Source: Aquificaceae bacterium
GTDB lineage: Bacteria > Aquificota > Aquificia > Aquificales > Aquificaceae
Direction of reading: 5' to 3'
Assembly: GCA_037925075.1 (NCBI GenBank)
Contig: JAXSNR010000001.1
Coordinates: 128,001 to 192,000, forward strand
DNA length: 64,000 nt
Under the pieces are notes generated by a model that saw only the letters and a list, made by a program, of their open reading frames with translations, was not told where the DNA came from and did no database searches. Below are positions 14,534 to 22,803 of the stretch, piece after piece (the stretch's first letter is position 1; the number at the start of each line of letters is the position of its first letter). The position numbers were made by a program, and so were the translations under genes.

Positions 14534-14547
14534 GGGAAAAAATTATA

Positions 14548-14581
14548 GCTTAATCAAATCTTAACAATTCACCTATACAAT
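14548..14581 (+). promoter_or_regulatory. Putative Pho box plus -10 element of the P1B-ATPase operon
   Basis: GCTTAAT-CAAA-TCTTAAC (14548-14565), 10-nt spacer AATTCACCTA, TACAAT (14576-14581); spacer matches the pstS spacer at 8 of 10 positions. Confidence 0.7.
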
Positions 14582-14590
14582 TCATAAGGG

Positions 14591-14965
14591 ATGATAGAGC
14601 ATGTGTCCTTAAGAAAAGGTGAGGCAAGGCTCTACTTTTCAAGCATTGCGGAAAAGGAGTTTTTTCTTCATGGTATGAAAGGGATGGAGGGGGTTGTGGG
14701 GGTGGAACACAAGGAGAACATAAGAACAGTCCTTGTAAGGTTTAGGGAGGGAAGCTTTGCTCACTACCTTATTGAAAACTTAAAGGCTAAGAGGGAAAGT
14801 CAGAAGCTGGAGAAGGAGGACTTACACTTCTACCTTCAGCCTTTTCTCAAACATCCGGCGGTTAAGTTGGGCTTTAGTATGGCTCTCCTTGGGTGGAATG
14901 TGGGGCTTATATCCTTTGCAATTTGCAGTATGTTTCTTATGCCATATTTAAAGAACAAACTTTAG
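14591..14965 (+). CDS. HMA-like domain plus C-terminal membrane segment protein (FezC-like)
   Basis: N-terminal ferredoxin-like pattern (GEARLYF..EGVVGVEH..RTVLVRF) and C-terminal TM with GWNVG (GxxxG). Confidence 0.5.
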   Translation: MIEHVSLRKGEARLYFSSIAEKEFFLHGMKGMEGVVGVEHKENIRTVLVRFREGSFAHYLIENLKAKRESQKLEKEDLHFYLQPFLKHPAVKLGFSMALLGWNVGLISFAICSMFLMPYLKNKL

Positions 14966-14975
14966 GAGGTAAGGT

Positions 14976-15290
14976 ATGCTTAACATCAGCGTTCCCAGTA
15001 CAATAGGTGGATGTTTGTCCACCAATATGCTTTTGTATGGCTTTGGTGCCTTTGCAGGGTTTGTGGTGCTTAGCAGGCTTATGAGGGATGCAAGGCCCCT
15101 TCTTGTTTCTGCTACAAAGGAGGTAATTGCCTTTCAGCAGTGGCTTGCGGGAAACCTTGAAGAAGGTAAGGAGTTCTGGGAGGATGTGGTCTCTGAAGCC
15201 AAGCACCAATACAGGCTTGAGGTGGAAAAGAAGTTGGATATCCTACAAAAACAGCAAGAAATCCTACAGAAAATAAAAGAAAGACTTTGA
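14976..15290 (+). CDS. DUF5132/DUF1490-like small membrane protein (FezA-like)
   Basis: Gly-rich TM (YGFGAFAG), then RPLLVSATKE...EFWEDVVSEAK amphipathic helix typical of P1B-ATPase-associated proteins. Confidence 0.6.
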   Translation: MLNISVPSTIGGCLSTNMLLYGFGAFAGFVVLSRLMRDARPLLVSATKEVIAFQQWLAGNLEEGKEFWEDVVSEAKHQYRLEVEKKLDILQKQQEILQKIKERL

Positions 15291-15301
15291 GGAGGTAAAA
15301 G

Positions 15302-15505
15302 ATGAGCAACATAACTTCTTTTTTAGGAAAGGCTCTTTGCTCTGGACCCTTTAGCTTTGCCCTTGGCTTTGGCCTTGGAATGGTTGCCTTTTACATGCTC
15401 GACAGAGTCAAAGAAAAAAGAAGGCTCGAAGAAACCCAGAAGGAAATAGAAGCCCTGGTCAAAGCCCTTGAGCTAAAGCTCCAGCAGGAGAGCAAGACAG
15501 AATGA
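15302..15505 (+). CDS. Small GxxxG membrane protein with coiled-coil tail
   Basis: FALGFGLGMVAF TM, charged C-terminal helix; GAGGAGG SD. Confidence 0.6.
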   Translation: MSNITSFLGKALCSGPFSFALGFGLGMVAFYMLDRVKEKRRLEETQKEIEALVKALELKLQQESKTE

Positions 15506-17586
15506 CCTACAAGGTGGAAAAACTCTTCCCCGGAAGGCTAAGGCTTGTCTCTTACCTTTTCCAGCATCTACACCATCCCGATGAAACCTTAAAGTCCTAC
15601 TTTTCAAGGTTTGGAGGTGTAAGAAGAATAAGCTACTCAAAGGCTTCCGGAAGGCTCACCCTTGAATACGACCCAAAGAGCTTTGACCTTATAGAATTTC
15701 TCAACCACCTTGAAAGCATACCAAGGGATGTTTTCCTTGAAGACCTATCAAGGGAAAAACCAGCCACAAAAAGGGAAGAAGGTAAGGCCTCTCGTTGGCT
15801 TATGCTTAGCACCCTTGGCTTCCTGCCATACATAATGAGAAGCACCCTATCCACGCCTTTCCTTGCGGGGATAACATTGCTTCTTGCCAAGCCCATATTT
15901 GACAAGGCTCTCAGTTCTATTGGAAGGAAAAAACTTGACGTTCATTTTCTTGACTCATCAGCCATAGTTCTGGCAAGCCTTACGGGAAACCCACTATCCG
16001 CACACACTATGGTCTTCCTGCTTGCCCTTGGTGATTATCTTTCAGAGAGGGTTGAAAGGAAAGCCTACGAGAAGATAGAAAAGCTTTTCTCTTACAAAGA
16101 GGACACCGCATGGCTACTTGTTGGCAACGGTCAGGCGGTAAAGGTAAAAGCCATAGACCTAAAAAGGGGTGACCTGATAGCGGTCTATGCGGGAGAGAAG
16201 ATACCGGCGGACGGCTTGGTAGAAGAGGGAGACGCCCTTGTAAATCAAGCATCTTTGACTGGAGAGTCAAACCCTGTTCACAAAAAGGTGGGTGATAAGG
16301 TCTTTGCGGGTACCTTTGTGGAGGATGGAAAGCTTTATGTGAAGGTGGAAGAAGTGGGCGAAGAAACGGTGGTTGCAAAGATAGCAAAAATTGTGGAAGA
16401 GAGTATAAAGGAGCCCATAAGCGTGCAGAAGATGGCAGAAGAAAACGCCAACAGGCTTGTAATGCCCACCATCAACCTTGGCTTGATATCTTATCTACTT
16501 AGCAATCAGGTAAGCAGGCTCACCTCCACCCTTATCATAGACTACCATACGGGAATTCACCTTACAACGCCTCTGACGGTGCTCTCCAGTGTGGCACAGG
16601 CTTCTACCTACGGCATACTCATAAAAAGCGGTGGAAAGCTGGAGGCTCTTTCAAGAGTTGATACCTTTGTAATGGACAAGACGGGCACTTTGACTTTGGG
16701 GTATCCTGCGGTTGAAGATGTAGTAGGTCTGGAAGTGCCAGACGAAGAAGCCCTTTTATACGCCGCTTCCCTTGAGCAAAGAATAACCCATCCCGTAGCA
16801 AGGGCAATAGTAAAGATGGCAGAGGATAAAGATATAGAGCTTTTGCCAAGAGAGAACTCCCAGTATCATATAGGGCTTGGTATAGAAGGGGAGTTAAGCG
16901 GTACAAAATTCATGCTTGGAAGCACTCGCTTTATGCAAAAAAAGAGGATAAGGATAAGTCAAGAGGTAAGAGACCTTGTGGAGAAGTTCCATTCGGAAGC
17001 AAAATCTGTCCTTTACCTTGTTAGAGAAAAGAGAATAGTGGGGCTTCTTACCTTTAGAGACCCACTGAGGCAAGAGGCAAAGGATGTGGTAGCAGAGCTA
17101 AAAAGGAGAGGAAAAAAGGTAGTGCTTTGCACAGGCGACAACGAAGGCGTAGCCAAGTACATGGCAAAGGAGTTGGGCATAGAAGAGTTTTACGCAAGGG
17201 TTTTCCCTGAGGAAAAGGCAAAGGTGATAGAAAATCTTAAAAGGCAGGGTAGGGTGGTTGCCTTTGTGGGGGATGGTGTAAACGATTCACCAGCTCTCTC
17301 TCGTGCGGATGTGGGCATATCTCTAAGAAGTGGAACAGACATAGCCATAGAGGTGGCGGATGTGGTCATAGGAGATAGCCTTTGGCATCTTATCGATGTG
17401 GTAGATATAGCAGAGCATACTATAAAAAGGCTAAGAAGCATATACAGGCTTAATGCTTTAGCCAACACGGTGGGGCTTGTGGGCTCCGCATTGGGTCTTT
17501 TTGGACCCTCTGTATCAACCTTGATAAACAACGGCACCACAGTGCTTTTGGGTTTATATTCAATAAAAAAAACAAAAAGGAGGTGA
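15502..17586 (+). CDS. Heavy-metal-translocating P1B-type ATPase, P1B-6/FezB-like
   Basis: TGES, DKTGT, HP, GDGVND core motifs; N-terminal PGRLRL; DYHTG replaces CPC in TM4; NNGTT in the last TM. Confidence 0.85.
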   Translation: MTYKVEKLFPGRLRLVSYLFQHLHHPDETLKSYFSRFGGVRRISYSKASGRLTLEYDPKSFDLIEFLNHLESIPRDVFLEDLSREKPATKREEGKASRWLMLSTLGFLPYIMRSTLSTPFLAGITLLLAKPIFDKALSSIGRKKLDVHFLDSSAIVLASLTGNPLSAHTMVFLLALGDYLSERVERKAYEKIEKLFSYKEDTAWLLVGNGQAVKVKAIDLKRGDLIAVYAGEKIPADGLVEEGDALVNQASLTGESNPVHKKVGDKVFAGTFVEDGKLYVKVEEVGEETVVAKIAKIVEESIKEPISVQKMAEENANRLVMPTINLGLISYLLSNQVSRLTSTLIIDYHTGIHLTTPLTVLSSVAQASTYGILIKSGGKLEALSRVDTFVMDKTGTLTLGYPAVEDVVGLEVPDEEALLYAASLEQRITHPVARAIVKMAEDKDIELLPRENSQYHIGLGIEGELSGTKFMLGSTRFMQKKRIRISQEVRDLVEKFHSEAKSVLYLVREKRIVGLLTFRDPLRQEAKDVVAELKRRGKKVVLCTGDNEGVAKYMAKELGIEEFYARVFPEEKAKVIENLKRQGRVVAFVGDGVNDSPALSRADVGISLRSGTDIAIEVADVVIGDSLWHLIDVVDIAEHTIKRLRSIYRLNALANTVGLVGSALGLFGPSVSTLINNGTTVLLGLYSIKKTKRR

Positions 17587-17592
17587 AAAGCA

Positions 17593-17862
17593 ATGGAAGA
17601 AAAAAAGGACCTTGCTCAGGAGCTTGAAAAAATCAAGGCGGAGCTTGAGGAGCTTAAGAAAAAGATGGGAGTAGCGGAAGAGGAAAAGAGTCTAAAGGAC
17701 CTTCCTACGGAAGCCCTCTCAAAGGTTATGGAGCTCAGTAAAGAAATAGTAAAGACCACCGCGGAGATAGGCGAGAAGGCTCTAAGGGTTGTAAGGTATT
17801 CCGTTGAGGGTGCGGTAGAAGGCGCAAAGAAGGCACTAAAAGAAGAGGAGAAGAAAGAGTAA
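17593..17862 (+). CDS. Coiled-coil hypothetical protein
   Basis: Strong SD; highly charged helical 89-aa ORF in the same operon. Confidence 0.7.
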   Translation: MEEKKDLAQELEKIKAELEELKKKMGVAEEEKSLKDLPTEALSKVMELSKEIVKTTAEIGEKALRVVRYSVEGAVEGAKKALKEEEKKE

Positions 17863-17864
17863 GG

Positions 17865-18122
17865 ATGAACTTCATAAGGACAAGAAGCGGAAGGTATCTT
17901 AATACTCTCCATATTATATCCCTTTCGGTGGAGGAAGCTAAGATAGAGATAGAGGGGAAAAAGAGGCTGGTTTATAAGGTGGTCGCCTACATGAGCCAGC
18001 CTCTTCTTCCTGCGGTTTTGGGTATTTACTCCACAGAAGAAAGAGCCTTTGAAGTTTTGGAAGATATTATACAAAGGCTTTCAAGGGACGAAAGGGTCAT
18101 ACATGTTGAAAGCGAGTACTGA
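17865..18122 (+). CDS. Hypothetical protein
   Basis: 85-aa ORF tightly packed after the previous gene. Confidence 0.6.
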   Translation: MNFIRTRSGRYLNTLHIISLSVEEAKIEIEGKKRLVYKVVAYMSQPLLPAVLGIYSTEERAFEVLEDIIQRLSRDERVIHVESEY

Positions 18123-18441
18123 AGACTACGAAAGAGAACTAAAGCTACTTGCCCATCATATACAGGAAGCACATAAGGAGCTTTTTAAAAGCATACAAGA
18201 GAACATTCTTCTTGAGGTAGAGCTTCCCGAGGGAGGGGGAGTTAATTTCCTAATAAGCTCCAGTGGCATAAATCTCACCTCCGATGTATCACAAGCCAAA
18301 CACGTGGTAAATGTAAGCTACAGAGATTTAATGAGGCTTGTGGAAAATCCCTCAAAGATAGTTTCTTATGTATTAAAGGGTAGGGTCAGAATAAGGGGAG
18401 ATTACAAAACCATACTCTCCACGCTTCAGAAACTCCTCTAA
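18103..18441 (+). CDS. SCP2 sterol/lipid-binding domain protein
   Basis: VNVSYRDLMRLV..P....VLKGRVRIRGD pattern of the SCP2 fold; ATG at 18103 inferred. Confidence 0.7.
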   Translation: MLKASTEDYERELKLLAHHIQEAHKELFKSIQENILLEVELPEGGGVNFLISSSGINLTSDVSQAKHVVNVSYRDLMRLVENPSKIVSYVLKGRVRIRGDYKTILSTLQKLL

Positions 18442-18644
18442 AAGAGCCTGTTTAGAGCTTTTGTTATAAGGTTTTCCAACAAACCACCCACTACGAAGGA
18501 TTCTATAAGTATAGTCCTGTCCTTTTCGGTGAGAAAAGTGTCCCTTTCGCGTTTTCTGAACTTTTCACCCTTTTTAAGAAGTCTTCTATAACAGTCCTTC
18601 TCCCTCTCTATCTCCTGAATTAGAAGCTCTATCCTTTCCTTCAT
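18438..18644 (-). CDS. 68-aa hypothetical protein
   Basis: ORF directly downstream of its own Pho-box-like promoter. Confidence 0.6.
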   Translation of the reverse strand: MKERIELLIQEIEREKDCYRRLLKKGEKFRKRERDTFLTEKDRTILIESFVVGGLLENLITKALNRLF

Positions 18645-18652
18645 GCTTGGGT

Positions 18653-18686
18653 AGTTTAACTGAAAACTGTTAAGATTTCGTTAAGG
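18653..18686 (-). promoter_or_regulatory. Putative Pho box plus -10 element
   Basis: Minus strand CCTTAAC-GAAA-TCTTAAC (18686-18669), 10-nt spacer AGTTTTCAGT, TAAACT (18658-18653), 8 nt to ATG. Confidence 0.75.
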
Positions 18687-18723
18687 ATTTCCCCTTACCC
18701 CTTTGTTTCCGAAAAGCACAAGA

Positions 18724-19833
18724 CTATACCTTAGCAAGGAAGCCACGATAGACCTCAAAGAGCCTGTCAAAGGTGGATTCCCAAGAAAACCTGTTGCGTA
18801 TAAAGGAGCTGACTGTTTCCCTGTATGATAAGCTTACCGCATTGCATGCATGGACTATGGCATCGTAGAAGACTTCCAGCGTGGGCTCTTTAACCAAAAA
18901 CTCCTTGAAGGGTTGTGTTTCAAGCTCCATATCAAAGGCAACCAGTAGACAACCGCACGCTTGAGCCTCAAGAAAGGCAAGTCCGTAGGTTTCGTAAAGG
19001 GAAGTGCTAACAAAGACATCACAACTCGCGTATATTTTTGCAAGGTCTTCTTTCTTAGCAATGTATCCAAGGTATGTAAGATTTGGAAGTTTTTGAGAGA
19101 GCCTTTCTACCTTTTTTCTGGCTGGACCATCGCCCACCACGACAAGATGAAATAATGTGGGGTCAAGATGTTGGAAAACTTCAAAGAGAAGGTCCACATT
19201 CTTATCGGGGGAAAGCCTACCCGCATAGAGGAGCTTAAATCTTCCCTCTTTTACTCCTATTATTTTATTGAAGTATGGGTCTCTCATAGAGGGGTTAAAA
19301 ACGTTTGTATCAACCCCTAAGTTTACAGTAAGCACATTTTCTATTCCAGACCTTTTTAGAAAGTCTTCCTGCGTCTTGGAGGGTGTTATTATGAGGTCCG
19401 CCTGGGATAGCTTTTTTCCTATGGTGTAGTCAATTAGAGCCTTCTTTAGTCTCTCTGGAGCAGGTATAAGTGAAAGGTCCGCCCTTATGTCGGAATGATA
19501 AAAAACGCTTAACATATACCTATCTGACTTGAGATGGTTTATGGGTTGGTATGTGCCACCTAGTTCTACCACATCTGGGTCTTCTACTTTCAGTATTTCC
19601 TTTATTTCCGAAAAGGAGGAAAAGAACCTGTAGCCACCGGTAAGGGGCAAGGGAAAAGAGGGAAGCTCATAAACCTTTGTGGAGTTTATGTAGTAGGTCC
19701 TCCTTTTTCTGCCCGGCACTATAAGAACATGCTCTATACCTCTCTGTTGCACATACTTGGTCTTTTCCAGTAAATACCTTCTTATGCCACCGCTTTTGCT
19801 ATGAAAGTAAGGGGTTATATCAGCTAACTTCAT
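18724..19833 (-). CDS. GT4-family glycosyltransferase
   Basis: MKLADITPYFHSKSGGIRRY, YAGRLSPDKN, GDGP, ETYGLAFLEAQACG; ATG at 19833 preferred. Confidence 0.9.
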   Translation of the reverse strand: MKLADITPYFHSKSGGIRRYLLEKTKYVQQRGIEHVLIVPGRKRRTYYINSTKVYELPSFPLPLTGGYRFFSSFSEIKEILKVEDPDVVELGGTYQPINHLKSDRYMLSVFYHSDIRADLSLIPAPERLKKALIDYTIGKKLSQADLIITPSKTQEDFLKRSGIENVLTVNLGVDTNVFNPSMRDPYFNKIIGVKEGRFKLLYAGRLSPDKNVDLLFEVFQHLDPTLFHLVVVGDGPARKKVERLSQKLPNLTYLGYIAKKEDLAKIYASCDVFVSTSLYETYGLAFLEAQACGCLLVAFDMELETQPFKEFLVKEPTLEVFYDAIVHACNAVSLSYRETVSSFIRNRFSWESTFDRLFEVYRGFLAKV

Positions 19834-22066
19834 GGACAAGCCTTCCAAGACCAGCTATGGCTAACATGTAGTCCATGTATGTTTTTCTCATATCAAGGCT
19901 TTTGGCGTAATACAGTGCTTCCTGAGACATGCTCCTTCTGAGGCTTTCATTGGAAAGAAGAAGGGACAACCTTTCTACAAAGTCTTCTTGTCTTGTGGCT
20001 ATAAAGCCATTAACACCCTCCTTTAAATGCTCATGGGAGGCACCCTTTGAACTTACCACCACAGGAAGACCGCATGCCATAGCCTCCAAAACCACCTGCC
20101 CATAGGTTTCAGTCTCTGAGGGGAAGAGAAACACATCTGAGCTTGCGTAGGCAGTAGCCAAATATTCTCCCACCATATATCCCACAAAATGCACATTTTT
20201 TGGTTTTTTAACTTCAAGCTCTCTTCTGTATGGTCCGTCTCCCACCACCACAAAAACATCCTCCGGAAAACACCTTGCGGTATAAAGGAAGGTATCCAAA
20301 CCCTTTTCCTTAGATACCCTGCCAACGTAGAGGATCACTCTTTGATGTCTTCTTATACCAAGCTTTTCAGTCCATAAATCTTCGCGTCTTTTTTGCGGTG
20401 AAAAGAGTTCCGTATCAACACCACGCTTGAAGGTGCTTACCTTGCCATACTCAAGCCCATTACTTATAAAAAGCTTTCTGTAATGTTCTGATGGGACAAA
20501 AAGCCTATCGGAGAGATTGCCCAGAAGGACAAAGGCTTTCCAAAGTAGTTCTTCCATCTGCGAGTCTCCCGTGTAGGTTCTTGCGTAGGCTGGTATGTCC
20601 GTATGAAAGGCAAAGGTGATCCTAAGATTTAGAACTTTGCCCGCTAAAAATCCCATAAGTCCAAGGGGTCCGGGTGTGGCTATATGAACTTGGGTAAAAC
20701 CCTCCTTTTCAATAAGGTCCAACAGCTCCAAAAAGTTAGGAACTCCCATCCTTAACTCTTCATAAAAGGGCGTGGCCAATTCAAAAAGAGGTTCTAAGTT
20801 TATAAGGTTTTCCTCTTCCTTTAACTGTGAGCTTGCAACAATCACTGTAAAGGGTAGGTCTTCCTCAAGGGCTATCTGTCTTATGAGCTTAGCACTTCTT
20901 GCAACTCCGTTTATGTGGTGGTAGGTATCCGTAAGGTAGGCAACCTTTGGAGGCTTTCCGTTGCTTATACCAAACTCCTTTCCAAGGACCCTTATCTTCT
21001 GCTCTTCTCTTTTCTGGGCGTACTTTAAAAAGGCGGGGAAGCCATGAGCCACGAGGGACAGGCACAGCTCCCCAATGGTCTGCGGTGAGGGGCTTTTCAA
21101 AAGCCTTCCTATGGCAAAGGAAGGCAGTTTTTTTGCTATTTCCCTCAAAAGGTCTGACCTTTCCGCTTTTATACCAAGAAGATTTCTCAAAAGCATACCC
21201 ACCAAAGGGTTGTCCGATTGCATGAAAATATAATCAGTTATCGGTCTTACCTCAGAAGGTATCAGGTTTTTGCTTTTTAGAAAGTCATAGCCCACTCTGC
21301 AAACCATATTGAGAAGCCTTTTATCTCCAAGGTCTTCTGTTCCCAAATGCGTTCTGCCTTCCCAAAGCCCTCGCAAAAACTCCTCTTTGCTAAGGGCCCC
21401 CTCAACTCCTGTCCAAGTCCTCCCCACATCCATGCCCCCGTGGTCATCAGAGCCTGCGGTAAAGGTGATCCTCTCCCTTATCCTCTGGGGTTCCATCTTG
21501 TGCCTTTCCGCAAGGGCGTTTATTCTGTCCCACCCATCGTAATGGCGGGCTATGGTCTCTTCTATGTATCTAACACCATCCCCCCTTGTGCCGTTTATCA
21601 CCTCCCAGTTGTCAAAGAGAAGCGCCAGTTTTTCCACGAGATTCCTGTCTATATTTGTCCCCTGCACCGAATAAAGAGGGTGTGCAAGGGAATGGGCTAT
21701 CCTGTGGGACTTTAGATATCTCACAAAATCGTATAAATTTTCCCTGAGCTTGAGAAGGTCCTGATGTTGGGCTTCTGTGATGCCATAGACCAACACATGC
21801 ACCTTAGCCTTTTCCTCTGGGAATTCCACCGTGTATTCACAGCTGATAAAGACCTCCGGCAGGTGTGCTATCTCAAGAACACCGCTTATAGTGTTGTGGT
21901 CTGTTATGGTAATATAGCTCATCCCTCTTTCTTTGAGCCTTATGTATATCTCCATGGGCTCTGTAAAGCTCTCTGGGCATCCTACTAACTTGCTAAACCA
22001 ACCCCCCGGCAGGTTGGAAGCCTTTGAATGAAGGTGTAGGTCCGCCTTTGCAAAAAAGTTCCCCAT
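19820..22066 (-). CDS. PHP phosphoesterase domain / GT4 glycosyltransferase fusion
   Basis: N-terminal DLHLHS, ITDHN, AHP, GSDDH (PHP); C-terminal TDTY..INGVA, HIATPGPLG, RGVD, YVGRVSKEK, ETYGQVVLEAMACG (GT4). Confidence 0.88.
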   Translation of the reverse strand: MGNFFAKADLHLHSKASNLPGGWFSKLVGCPESFTEPMEIYIRLKERGMSYITITDHNTISGVLEIAHLPEVFISCEYTVEFPEEKAKVHVLVYGITEAQHQDLLKLRENLYDFVRYLKSHRIAHSLAHPLYSVQGTNIDRNLVEKLALLFDNWEVINGTRGDGVRYIEETIARHYDGWDRINALAERHKMEPQRIRERITFTAGSDDHGGMDVGRTWTGVEGALSKEEFLRGLWEGRTHLGTEDLGDKRLLNMVCRVGYDFLKSKNLIPSEVRPITDYIFMQSDNPLVGMLLRNLLGIKAERSDLLREIAKKLPSFAIGRLLKSPSPQTIGELCLSLVAHGFPAFLKYAQKREEQKIRVLGKEFGISNGKPPKVAYLTDTYHHINGVARSAKLIRQIALEEDLPFTVIVASSQLKEEENLINLEPLFELATPFYEELRMGVPNFLELLDLIEKEGFTQVHIATPGPLGLMGFLAGKVLNLRITFAFHTDIPAYARTYTGDSQMEELLWKAFVLLGNLSDRLFVPSEHYRKLFISNGLEYGKVSTFKRGVDTELFSPQKRREDLWTEKLGIRRHQRVILYVGRVSKEKGLDTFLYTARCFPEDVFVVVGDGPYRRELEVKKPKNVHFVGYMVGEYLATAYASSDVFLFPSETETYGQVVLEAMACGLPVVVSSKGASHEHLKEGVNGFIATRQEDFVERLSLLLSNESLRRSMSQEALYYAKSLDMRKTYMDYMLAIAGLGRLVHEVS

Positions 22067-22739
22067 AGCTGGCTAACCTCCTTTCCTTTTTTATCTTGCC
22101 AAGTATTTCTTTCCAAAGCTCTATCTTTCTTTCGTCTCTAAAGTCCGCCATATGAAGGGCAAGTCTGAGGACCTGATGACCTTTGTAGAGTTTTTCCATG
22201 TTGGGAACCACCATAAGGCTTAGCCAAGATAGCAGATTCCTGTTGCTGAAGGTAAGCGTGGGAGAGTCTATGACCCTGTTGTGGTGTAGGTCCTTTATGT
22301 GCCACCTGTAAGCTACAGCCCTAAAACCAAAGGAGTAAAGCACATCCTCAAGGTAAGGATTCCCTATCCATGCGGGTGGCACAAAAAACTCTGTATTTAG
22401 ACCAAAATATTCCATAAGCTCCAAGCCAGATTGAACCCTTTTATAGGTCTCCGTAAGGTCAAGCCCCCCAAACTCACCCTCCCCATCTGTCCAAAGCAAG
22501 TCCTGAAGCCTCTTCTTACCCTTATGGGTGTACCCATGAAGCACCAGCTCCACCTTGAGGCTTTTTAGAAGGTTCAAAAAGCTCAGGTCCCCTCCAAGTG
22601 GTGCGTACTCCCAAAAGTAGGGCACTACAAGAAGGGAAAATCTATCCAATCCCACCTCCTCCAAGAGCTCAAGGGCTTTATAAAACTCAACCCTGTAATA
22701 AGGGCTCACATCGTGAAGTTCCACTATGGCAAGCTTCAT
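21993..22739 (-). CDS. DUF2334 / polysaccharide deacetylase-family protein
   Basis: ELHDVSP, LHGYTH, EGEF, FVPPAW, RLALH motifs. Confidence 0.85.
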   Translation of the reverse strand: MKLAIVELHDVSPYYRVEFYKALELLEEVGLDRFSLLVVPYFWEYAPLGGDLSFLNLLKSLKVELVLHGYTHKGKKRLQDLLWTDGEGEFGGLDLTETYKRVQSGLELMEYFGLNTEFFVPPAWIGNPYLEDVLYSFGFRAVAYRWHIKDLHHNRVIDSPTLTFSNRNLLSWLSLMVVPNMEKLYKGHQVLRLALHMADFRDERKIELWKEILGKIKKERRLASYGELFCKGGPTPSFKGFQPAGGLV

Positions 22740-22746
22740 AGAAAAA

Positions 22747-22802
22747 AGAGTAGTATGGGAAAGTTAAGATTTCTTTAAGGTTTGGTTAAGATTTGGTTAA
22801 GA
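22747..22802 (-). promoter_or_regulatory. Four tandem Pho-box-like half-sites plus -10 element
   Basis: Minus strand TCTTAAC-CAAA-TCTTAAC-CAAA-CCTTAAA-GAAA-TCTTAAC (22802-22763), 10-nt spacer, TACTCT (22752-22747), 7 nt to ATG. Confidence 0.8.
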
Positions 22803-22803
22803 T

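Follow-up and report, generated by a model that had tools for sequence, protein, structure and literature searches.

Phosphate limitation leads some bacteria to replace phospholipids with phosphorus-free lipids. In Pseudomonas aeruginosa (PA3219/PA3218/PA0842; Jones et al. 2021, PMC8528852, where S. meliloti and Phaeobacter are cited), this renovation pairs the lipid phosphoesterase PlcP with Agt-type glycosyltransferases of family 4 (GT4). Phosphate-limited Desulfovibrio alaskensis swaps more than 90% of its phospholipid for monoglycosyl diacylglycerol (MGDG), for glucuronic acid diacylglycerol (GADG) and for ornithine lipids; a mutant of strain G20 in Dde_3613 ('agt') is without MGDG and GADG, the gene being needed only under phosphate limitation (Bosak et al. 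2016, PMC5193443). A different pair of P. aeruginosa enzymes, GpgS and GpgD, makes N-acetylglucosaminyl-phosphatidylglycerol (GlcNAc-PG) and then glucosaminyl-phosphatidylglycerol (GlcN-PG) (Khan et al. 2025, PMC12713373). Here we analysed a stretch of 64,000 nucleotides (the window) from an Aquificaceae bacterium (assembly GCA_037925075.1, contig JAXSNR010000001.1, positions 128,001 to 192,000), in which an operon encodes a DUF2334 deacetylase, a fusion of a PHP metallo-phosphoesterase domain to a GT4 glycosyltransferase, and a second GT4 enzyme. The best overall explanation, to which we assign a probability of roughly 45%, is that phosphate starvation switches this operon on and that its products are phosphorus-free membrane glycolipids, including an amino-sugar step.

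Organisation of the operon and its promoter

The operon consists of three overlapping open reading frames (ORFs) on the minus strand of a 1.6-Mb genome (Table 1). The deacetylase and fusion frames overlap by 74 nt, those of the fusion and the second GT4 by 14 nt, and hydropathy revealed no transmembrane helix in any of the three proteins. Of 23 related loci, 22 have DUF2334 upstream of the fusion and 21 have the second GT4 downstream of it; the exceptions include a contig that breaks off within the fusion and the sole non-Aquificota locus, which has the fusion alone. The operon is real and conserved. An earlier note on this DNA had placed three overlapping genes behind the largest Pho-box-like array of the window, with four units, and the reading frames, the Pfam matches and the array scan agree with it.

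This array is the only one with at least three TTAA units, both in the window and in a scan of the whole genome, and none appeared in five simulated genomes. Sites with two CTTAAC units and at most one mismatch were little above chance (13 in the genome, against 4-9 per simulated genome). However, nine of these 13 sites carry TAnnnT exactly 10 bp past the last unit, as compared with 0-1 sites in the simulated genomes and a background of 1.8% per position. These nine sites take in pstS, phoX, phoU, an arsC-like gene and the operon studied here. The operon thus displays a feature of Pho regulons, 11-bp direct repeats placed 10 bp before the -10 element, in common with pstS, phoX and phoU. The spacing between box and -10 is visible in relatives too, despite variable spacers, and a strict two-unit test upstream of DUF2334 in 22 related loci located the box on the same strand as the gene in 15 and on the opposite one in 3, with none found in the other 4. 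The genome also contains a gene for a PhoB-like regulator at C2:654700-655371 (best NCBIfam family PhoB, 234 bits, below the cut-off of 296). We take the box motif to resemble the cyanobacterial SphR box. This shared promoter geometry makes it very probable that the operon is phosphate-regulated, as the earlier note had also proposed. No description of an Aquificae Pho regulon was found in the literature searched, which consisted mostly of papers outside subscription journals.

Table 1. Positions, in the window, of the operon genes, of the two domains of the fusion and of the predicted promoter elements.
Feature	Position	Strand	Remarks
Four-unit Pho-box-like array	22763..22803	-	ATCTTAACCAA; 11-bp period; TTAA units begin at 22764
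Predicted -10 hexamer	22747..22752	-	TACTCT; 10 bp past the last unit, 7 nt before the DUF2334 ATG
DUF2334 deacetylase, GpgD-like	21993-22739	-	248 aa; Pfam DUF2334, 76 bits
PHP-GT4 fusion	19820-22066	-	748 aa; AlphaFold2 model, pLDDT 91.7
PHP metallo-phosphoesterase domain	21338..22054	-	About residues 5-243; predicted from fold and conserved ligands
Agt-type GT4 domain	19856..20953	-	About residues 372-737
Second GT4, GpgS-like	18724-19833	-	369 aa from ATG (374 aa from TTG at 19848); Pfam GT4 over the protein

No Shine-Dalgarno sequence precedes the DUF2334 ATG. Directly after the operon lies an ORF of 68 aa (18438-18644, minus strand) without Pfam or NCBIfam match, which has its own two-unit box (18669-18687) and -10 element and the same length in 8 of 9 relatives checked (one appears shifted). 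For both the operon (22740-22752) and this ORF (18645-18658), the start codon lies 7-8 nt past the -10 element without a ribosome-binding site, which suggests that the two transcripts are leaderless. Further sites with box and -10 element were observed at C1:394351 (-), C1:582799 (+) and C1:119106 (+). They stand ahead of a 126-aa protein, presumably DUF302-like, and of the arsC-like gene, and one has no same-strand ORF of at least 100 aa within 400 bp.

The fused glycosyltransferase and its relative in Desulfovibrio

A helical linker (residues 248-364) joins the PHP domain to the glycosyltransferase half of the fusion, in which Pfam placed GT4 domains at residues 386-717. For Agt1 as well as Agt2 of P. 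aeruginosa, this half was the top match in the genome (34% identity to each), the two queries having been identified via gene arrangement in annotated records, and it possesses the NGV and E/D-x7-E motifs of Agt-type enzymes. A quick, midpoint-rooted tree of 42 rows, with 22 of the 96 full-length fusions and a set free of solute or lipopolysaccharide (LPS) enzymes, grouped the fused GT4 with Agt1, Agt2 and PAP2-linked glycosyltransferases, apart from the GpgS-like group, with a support of 100. A fold search with the whole fusion returned GT4 matches only.

The fusion belongs to a family of 1268 homologues of its residues 1-300, in proteins of 411-1309 aa. It is present in 67 of 178 Aquificota genomes, in 68 of the 401 genomes sampled from a Desulfobacterota-type phylum and also on soil and sediment contigs (80 of 535 kept). 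Named proteins of Hydrogenobacter thermophilus and Thermocrinis are among its members. In a few Aquificota genomes (G132, at C1:1191290, G165, G036 and G167) and at locus L090 it appears split or interrupted, whether by sequencing error or by decay. We found no description of a PHP-GT4 fusion in the literature searched.

One member of the family has nevertheless very probably been studied. The supplementary rows of PMC5193443 annotate Dde_3613 as a PHP N-terminus plus a group-1 glycosyltransferase; the main text of that paper contains no mention of PHP. Because insertions reach offset 2379 and the next gene begins 2575 bp past the start (Kuehl et al. 2014, PMC4045070), the protein should have about 793-858 aa. 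Both annotation and length agree with the fusion family, the assignment being drawn from these two features. Named fusions of Desulfovibrionaceae are 40-44% identical to that of the window in the PHP domain and 33-37% in the glycosyltransferase, with glycosyltransferase active-site motifs in common. With Dde_3613 very probably a tested member, the family's role in making glycolipids is nearly known already, the role of the PHP half being only predicted. The earlier claim that the fusion glycosylates diacylglycerol under phosphate starvation thus agrees with Dde_3613, although it is less new than proposed. By analogy with Agt and Dde_3613, the fusion of the window quite probably makes a glucosyl or glucuronosyl lipid.

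The PHP domain and the source of diacylglycerol

The AlphaFold2 model of residues 1-260 (pLDDT 91.9) adopts a PHP fold. Foldseek matched it to RNase AM, PsfC, BVU_3505, TM0559 and BAD_1165 (E values from 6.5e-11 to 2e-6), and structure alignment to five PHP structures gave Z scores of 15.3-17.8 and root-mean-square deviations of 2.8-3.4 over 182-207 aligned residues. At the sequence level, Pfam reported a weak PHP_C match (16 bits, below cut-off), comparison with the PDB gave repeat-protein noise only, a profile search produced one weak PHP match, and the clusters obtained from the ESM Atlas were all either unnamed or PHP_C. Stand-alone PHP forms were also looked for, but the candidates listed appear to be fragments of fusions. 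The putative metal ligands D56, H57, E77, H90, H129, E155, D207, D208 and H209 were invariant, and D9, H11 and H13 were kept in at least 90%, among 61 homologues not chosen by motif. This set is the reliable one, since our other invariance counts, including the run that gave the DUF2334 residue counts below, are partly circular, the sequences having been chosen by motif. The domain had been described in the earlier note as non-homologous to PlcP, and this holds: the predicted fold is PHP, with intact metal ligands, and no calcineurin-like fold was encountered.

We next consider which enzyme might supply the lipid backbone. TIGR01854 was tried as a marker for PlcP and rejected, as its matches are for the most part LpxH-like proteins (164 of 401) and the GNHD/GNRD motif gave no separation; a real PlcP query was used instead. 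With tblastn, this query had no match in the genome at E<=1 and none in 143 fusion loci at E<=1e-3, and only two partial weak matches in the 178 Aquificota. The three PF00149 matches of the genome are YaeI-, SbcD- and YmdB-like (sequence and context served to name the latter two). Ralstonia PAP2 likewise had no match in the genome (tblastn, E<=1). In the Desulfobacterota-type phylum, 7 of the 401 genomes have a PlcP-like gene; four of these seven then have a stand-alone Agt1-type glycosyltransferase and none has the fusion.

The surroundings of stand-alone relatives of the fused glycosyltransferase were informative. Eight of 22 matches in a plasmid collection were examined, seven of them annotated: the gene adjoins PAP2 in three (Ralstonia, Acinetobacter and Bacillus) and PlcP in two, and the eighth, unannotated, showed no PlcP or PAP2 match. 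The Ralstonia locus brings together genes for the glycosyltransferase, for PAP2 and for GpgD-like and GpgS-like proteins, the same module as in the window with PAP2 in the place of PHP. From these arrangements we infer that the PHP domain fills the backbone-supplying slot, and it is probable that it does so, action on phosphatidic acid being, by analogy, more probable than phospholipase C activity. The proposal that PHP stands in for PlcP is thereby shifted: no PlcP was found, as it would demand, but the gene context favours a phosphatidate phosphatase of the PAP2 type at least as much.

The second glycosyltransferase and the deacetylase

The best NCBIfam match of the second GT4 was GlcNAc-PG synthase (GpgS, NF053787; 187 bits, the next family scoring 52), below the cut-off of 480, which none of the 178 Aquificota passes. 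In the tree it clustered with a Marinobacter protein that passes this cut-off at 598 bits. The only NCBIfam match of the DUF2334 protein was GlcNAc-PG deacetylase (GpgD, NF053788; 100 bits, cut-off 280), and its putative catalytic residues H9 D10, H68 G69 H72, P122 A123 W124, R192 and H196 were conserved in 90% or more of 36 sequences. Judged by these matches, the two proteins are distant relatives of GpgS and GpgD. A pair acting in the order N-acetylglucosamine then glucosamine had been foreseen, and the best matches bear this out, with the qualification that the known acceptor is phosphatidylglycerol (PG) and that the pair need not spare phosphate. The lipid had also been predicted to be cationic; the amino-sugar pair remains, but the product would be zwitterionic if the amino sugar is placed on glucuronate.

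Among the 178 Aquificota, DUF2334 occurs in all 67 fusion-positive genomes, with 4 weak matches elsewhere. A GpgS-like gene occurs in 60, all fusion-positive; the seven fusion-positive genomes without it are all drafts of 70-230 contigs, five of them less than 85% complete. In a wider set of 118 fusion loci (L025, L026, L057-L096 and L131-L206, the near-identical L004-L024 and L127-L130 being left out), DUF2334 was found in 36, the second glycosyltransferase in 22 and both in 21. DUF2334 and the fusion stand without the second glycosyltransferase in the fetched stretch at L156, L177, L190-L192, L194, L195, L198, L202, L205 and L206, among others. Since such loci show no GpgS-like gene, the deacetylase may act there on the fusion's own product. 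The operon includes no flippase gene, and two unlinked PF03706 genes are present in the genome; a GpgF-type flippase completes a gpgSDF-like set in three fusion loci (L072, L148 and L161).

Proposed product and alternative explanations

In the proposed mechanism, a PhoB-type regulator would bind the four-unit box. The PHP domain would strip phosphate from a lipid precursor, phosphatidic acid more probably than a mature phospholipid, leaving diacylglycerol or its ether form. The fused GT4 would then add glucose or glucuronate, the step for which Dde_3613 is needed in Desulfovibrio; the GpgS-like enzyme would add N-acetylglucosamine onto that glycolipid, and the GpgD-like enzyme would take off the acetyl group. 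Neutral or anionic glucosyl and glucuronosyl lipids would replace phosphatidylinositol (PI), and a zwitterionic glucosaminyl-glucuronosyl lipid the aminophospholipid APT. The end product is likely a glucosaminyl-glucuronosyl (or -glucosyl) lipid.

Lipids of this type have been reported from hot springs. Aquificae-rich streamers contain lipids labelled 1G, 2G and GA with C18-C20 ether or ester chains (Schubotz et al. 2015, PMC4318418, Table 2), and the same source lists G-NG-DAG from 'unknown thermophilic bacteria'. NG-GA on the backbones DAG, AEG and DEG is a new identification in Yellowstone springs (Boyer et al. 2020, PMC7044123, Table 1). NG-GA and G-NG are the products expected if the amino-sugar pair extends the product of the fusion. 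The earlier idea of a new lipid would then give way to that of an orphan lipid already reported. We also considered whether the P. aeruginosa lipid UGL (PMC8528852) might be a hexosaminyl-hexuronosyl diacylglycerol (HexN-HexA-DAG), and rejected this, its m/z of 786.8 differing from the predicted 932.6 or 949.7. In its fullest form the hypothesis would make the PHP domain the first of its kind to act on lipids. With PlcP and PAP2 as the other two, it would be a third fold supplying diacylglycerol or its ether form, here handed directly to the fused glycosyltransferase. The three genes together would be the source of the orphan lipid NG-GA of hot-spring streamers and of the ether glycolipids related to it; that both parts hold is a tentative and rather doubtful proposition.

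Several observations weigh against the phosphorus-free amino-sugar glycolipid. The match to NG-GA and G-NG is by headgroup only, and these lipids could come from other members of the mats. Dde_3613 was absent among the 120 of 2601 matches listed, and the phenotype of its mutant is no test of the PHP half, because the insertion in mutant 48D8 (plate 48, D08), at offset 1450, falls past the PHP domain (PMC4045070). The mutual exclusion of PlcP and the fusion is not significant (0/68 vs 7/333, Fisher p 0.61), and two of the seven annotated stand-alone relatives have neither PAP2 nor PlcP adjacent. The remaining points concern the acceptor of the amino sugar. The sole GpgS and GpgD tested act on PG, also in E. 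coli (PMC12713373), and this is why the pair need not spare phosphate. The genome has pgsA, just over the cut-off (113.6 vs 109.1), and two PIP-synthase-like genes, 15 of the 36 DUF2334 loci lack a GpgS-like gene within the fetched stretch, and three fusion loci have the gpgSDF-like set. The operon might then, as the main alternative, do two parallel jobs, the fusion making glucosyl or glucuronosyl diacylglycerol and the pair making GlcN-PG or GlcN-PI from leftover phospholipid, for charge balance and not for phosphate sparing. We regard this as possible but somewhat unlikely: the scores lie so far under the GpgS and GpgD cut-offs (187/480 and 100/280) that the acceptor may differ, the GpgS/GpgD-like genes never occur without the fusion in the 178 Aquificota (related genomes, not independent), a phosphate-bearing product suits the strongest box of the genome less well, and it is PI and APT, rather than PG, that have been reported as diagnostic of Aquificae (PMC4318418). 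On balance, the amino sugar goes slightly more plausibly onto a glycolipid than onto a phospholipid.

The PHP domain could also have another task. Glycolipids might be made while PHP acts on a soluble phosphoester, such as the nucleotide by-product of the transferase, or senses phosphate, with diacylglycerol coming from another enzyme. Its closest solved folds, RNase AM, an AMP-bound hydrolase and PsfC among them, include no lipid enzyme, which speaks against a lipid substrate; PAP2 occurs in 4 of 143 fusion loci, once directly downstream, where it would be redundant with a lipid-acting PHP; a plcP mutant of P. aeruginosa continues to produce some GADG (PMC8528852); and a hydrophobic-moment scan singled out no membrane-binding helix at the PHP site. 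A short aromatic/basic helix past the HxH motif is nevertheless kept in 43 of 43 aligned PHP domains, which is suggestive only, Agt-type glycosyltransferases recurrently have as their partner a lipid phosphoesterase with a different fold, and the genome has a match to neither PlcP nor Ralstonia PAP2. A soluble substrate or a sensing role is accordingly an improbable alternative. It is far less probable still that LPS or exopolysaccharide is modified by the enzymes, or that their product is a compatible solute, as with sugar-phosphate synthase fusions. The GT4 family is a broad one, structural matches included MshA, BshA, HepE and sucrose-phosphate synthase, and fusions of a glycosyltransferase to a phosphatase are typical of solute synthases. 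Yet the best profile matches are all lipid enzymes, the tree places both glycosyltransferases among lipid glycosyltransferases (within its set, free of solute and LPS enzymes), ornithine-lipid, flippase and DedA genes are among the neighbours, and the Dde_3613 mutant loses glycolipids (PMC5193443).

Neighbouring genes

Among the 118 fusion loci, ornithine-lipid genes were present in 16 and phoU, pstS, phoH or regulator-kinase genes in 23 (cluster counts, without a background control), and flippase and DedA genes were further neighbours. A Hydrogenothermaceae locus (L025:2645-11564) has the order olsB, olsA, DUF2334, fusion, second glycosyltransferase, an ankyrin-like gene and phoX. A pair of genes, Methyltransf_24 and a phosphatidylserine-decarboxylase-like gene, adjoins the fusion in 23 of the 118 loci (L058, L060, L061, L063-L066, L068, L070, L071 and others), and a radical-SAM gene does so in 11; these genes possibly represent routes to other phosphorus-free lipids. 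The genome of the window also has a UDP-glucose dehydrogenase-like gene.

On the plus strand of the window, a six-gene operon (14547-18441) encodes proteins of 124 and 104 aa, a P1B-type ATPase, proteins of 89 and 85 aa and an SCP2-like protein. The ATPase has a weak HMA_2 match and an unusual IIDYHTG segment ahead of its phosphorylation motif. The operon has its own box, with a -10 element at 14549, kept in relatives, and HMA_2, DUF5132 or related ATPase genes lie close to the fusion in 15 of the 118 loci, distant ones included. We take it to resemble the ferrosome (fez) operons, which store iron phosphate; if it is ferrosome-like, its Pho control would be notable.

Comparison with known systems

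The operon resembles the PlcP-Agt renovation of P. aeruginosa (PMC8528852) in its probable Pho-box control, its Agt-type GT4 and its predicted glucosyl or glucuronosyl diacylglycerol. It differs from it in that no PlcP was found, the phosphoesterase being of predicted PHP fold and fused to the glycosyltransferase, in its extra amino-sugar step, and in its box, which is of CTTAAC type where that of the PlcP-Agt system is CTGTCAT. With the GpgS/GpgD/GpgF system of P. aeruginosa (PMC12713373, where C. difficile HexSDF is cited) it shares a GT4 and a deacetylase of the COG3233/DUF2334 type. Unlike that system, it scores far below the family cut-offs, has no flippase in the operon and comes with both a glycolipid synthase and a box of Pho type; the portions of PMC12713373 covered here make no phosphate link for GpgSDF. 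Dde_3613 is like the fusion in combining PHP with a glycosyltransferase and in its link to glycolipids under phosphate limitation. However, its listed neighbours, Dde_3610-3616 (GT2, infA, laccase-like and three hypotheticals, among others), include none annotated as DUF2334 or as a second GT4. The GT4 and PAP2 modules of Ralstonia, Acinetobacter and Bacillus, known from annotation, have the same glycosyltransferase group beside a phosphoesterase, all four functions being united in Ralstonia; they differ in having PAP2 instead of PHP, unfused.

If the preferred explanation is true, it would account for the origin of diacylglycerol in such anaerobes and thermophiles, and a lipid would join the substrates of PHP domains. 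Glycolipids that are abundant in hot springs, lack an assignment and are currently interpreted as heat adaptation would gain a named producer and a trigger; in the fullest form of the hypothesis, NG-GA and related lipids would be Aquificae markers of phosphate starvation instead. PlcP is the usual marker of lipid remodelling and was not found in carriers of the fusion, so that plcP-based surveys would miss them. The nine sites also define a predicted phosphate-starvation promoter motif for Aquificae. The operon of the window would work like PlcP-Agt plus GpgS and GpgD, and yet by the defining tests it is a member of neither; what is new here is the promoter geometry, the parallel with PAP2 and a possible connection with the orphan lipids of hot springs.

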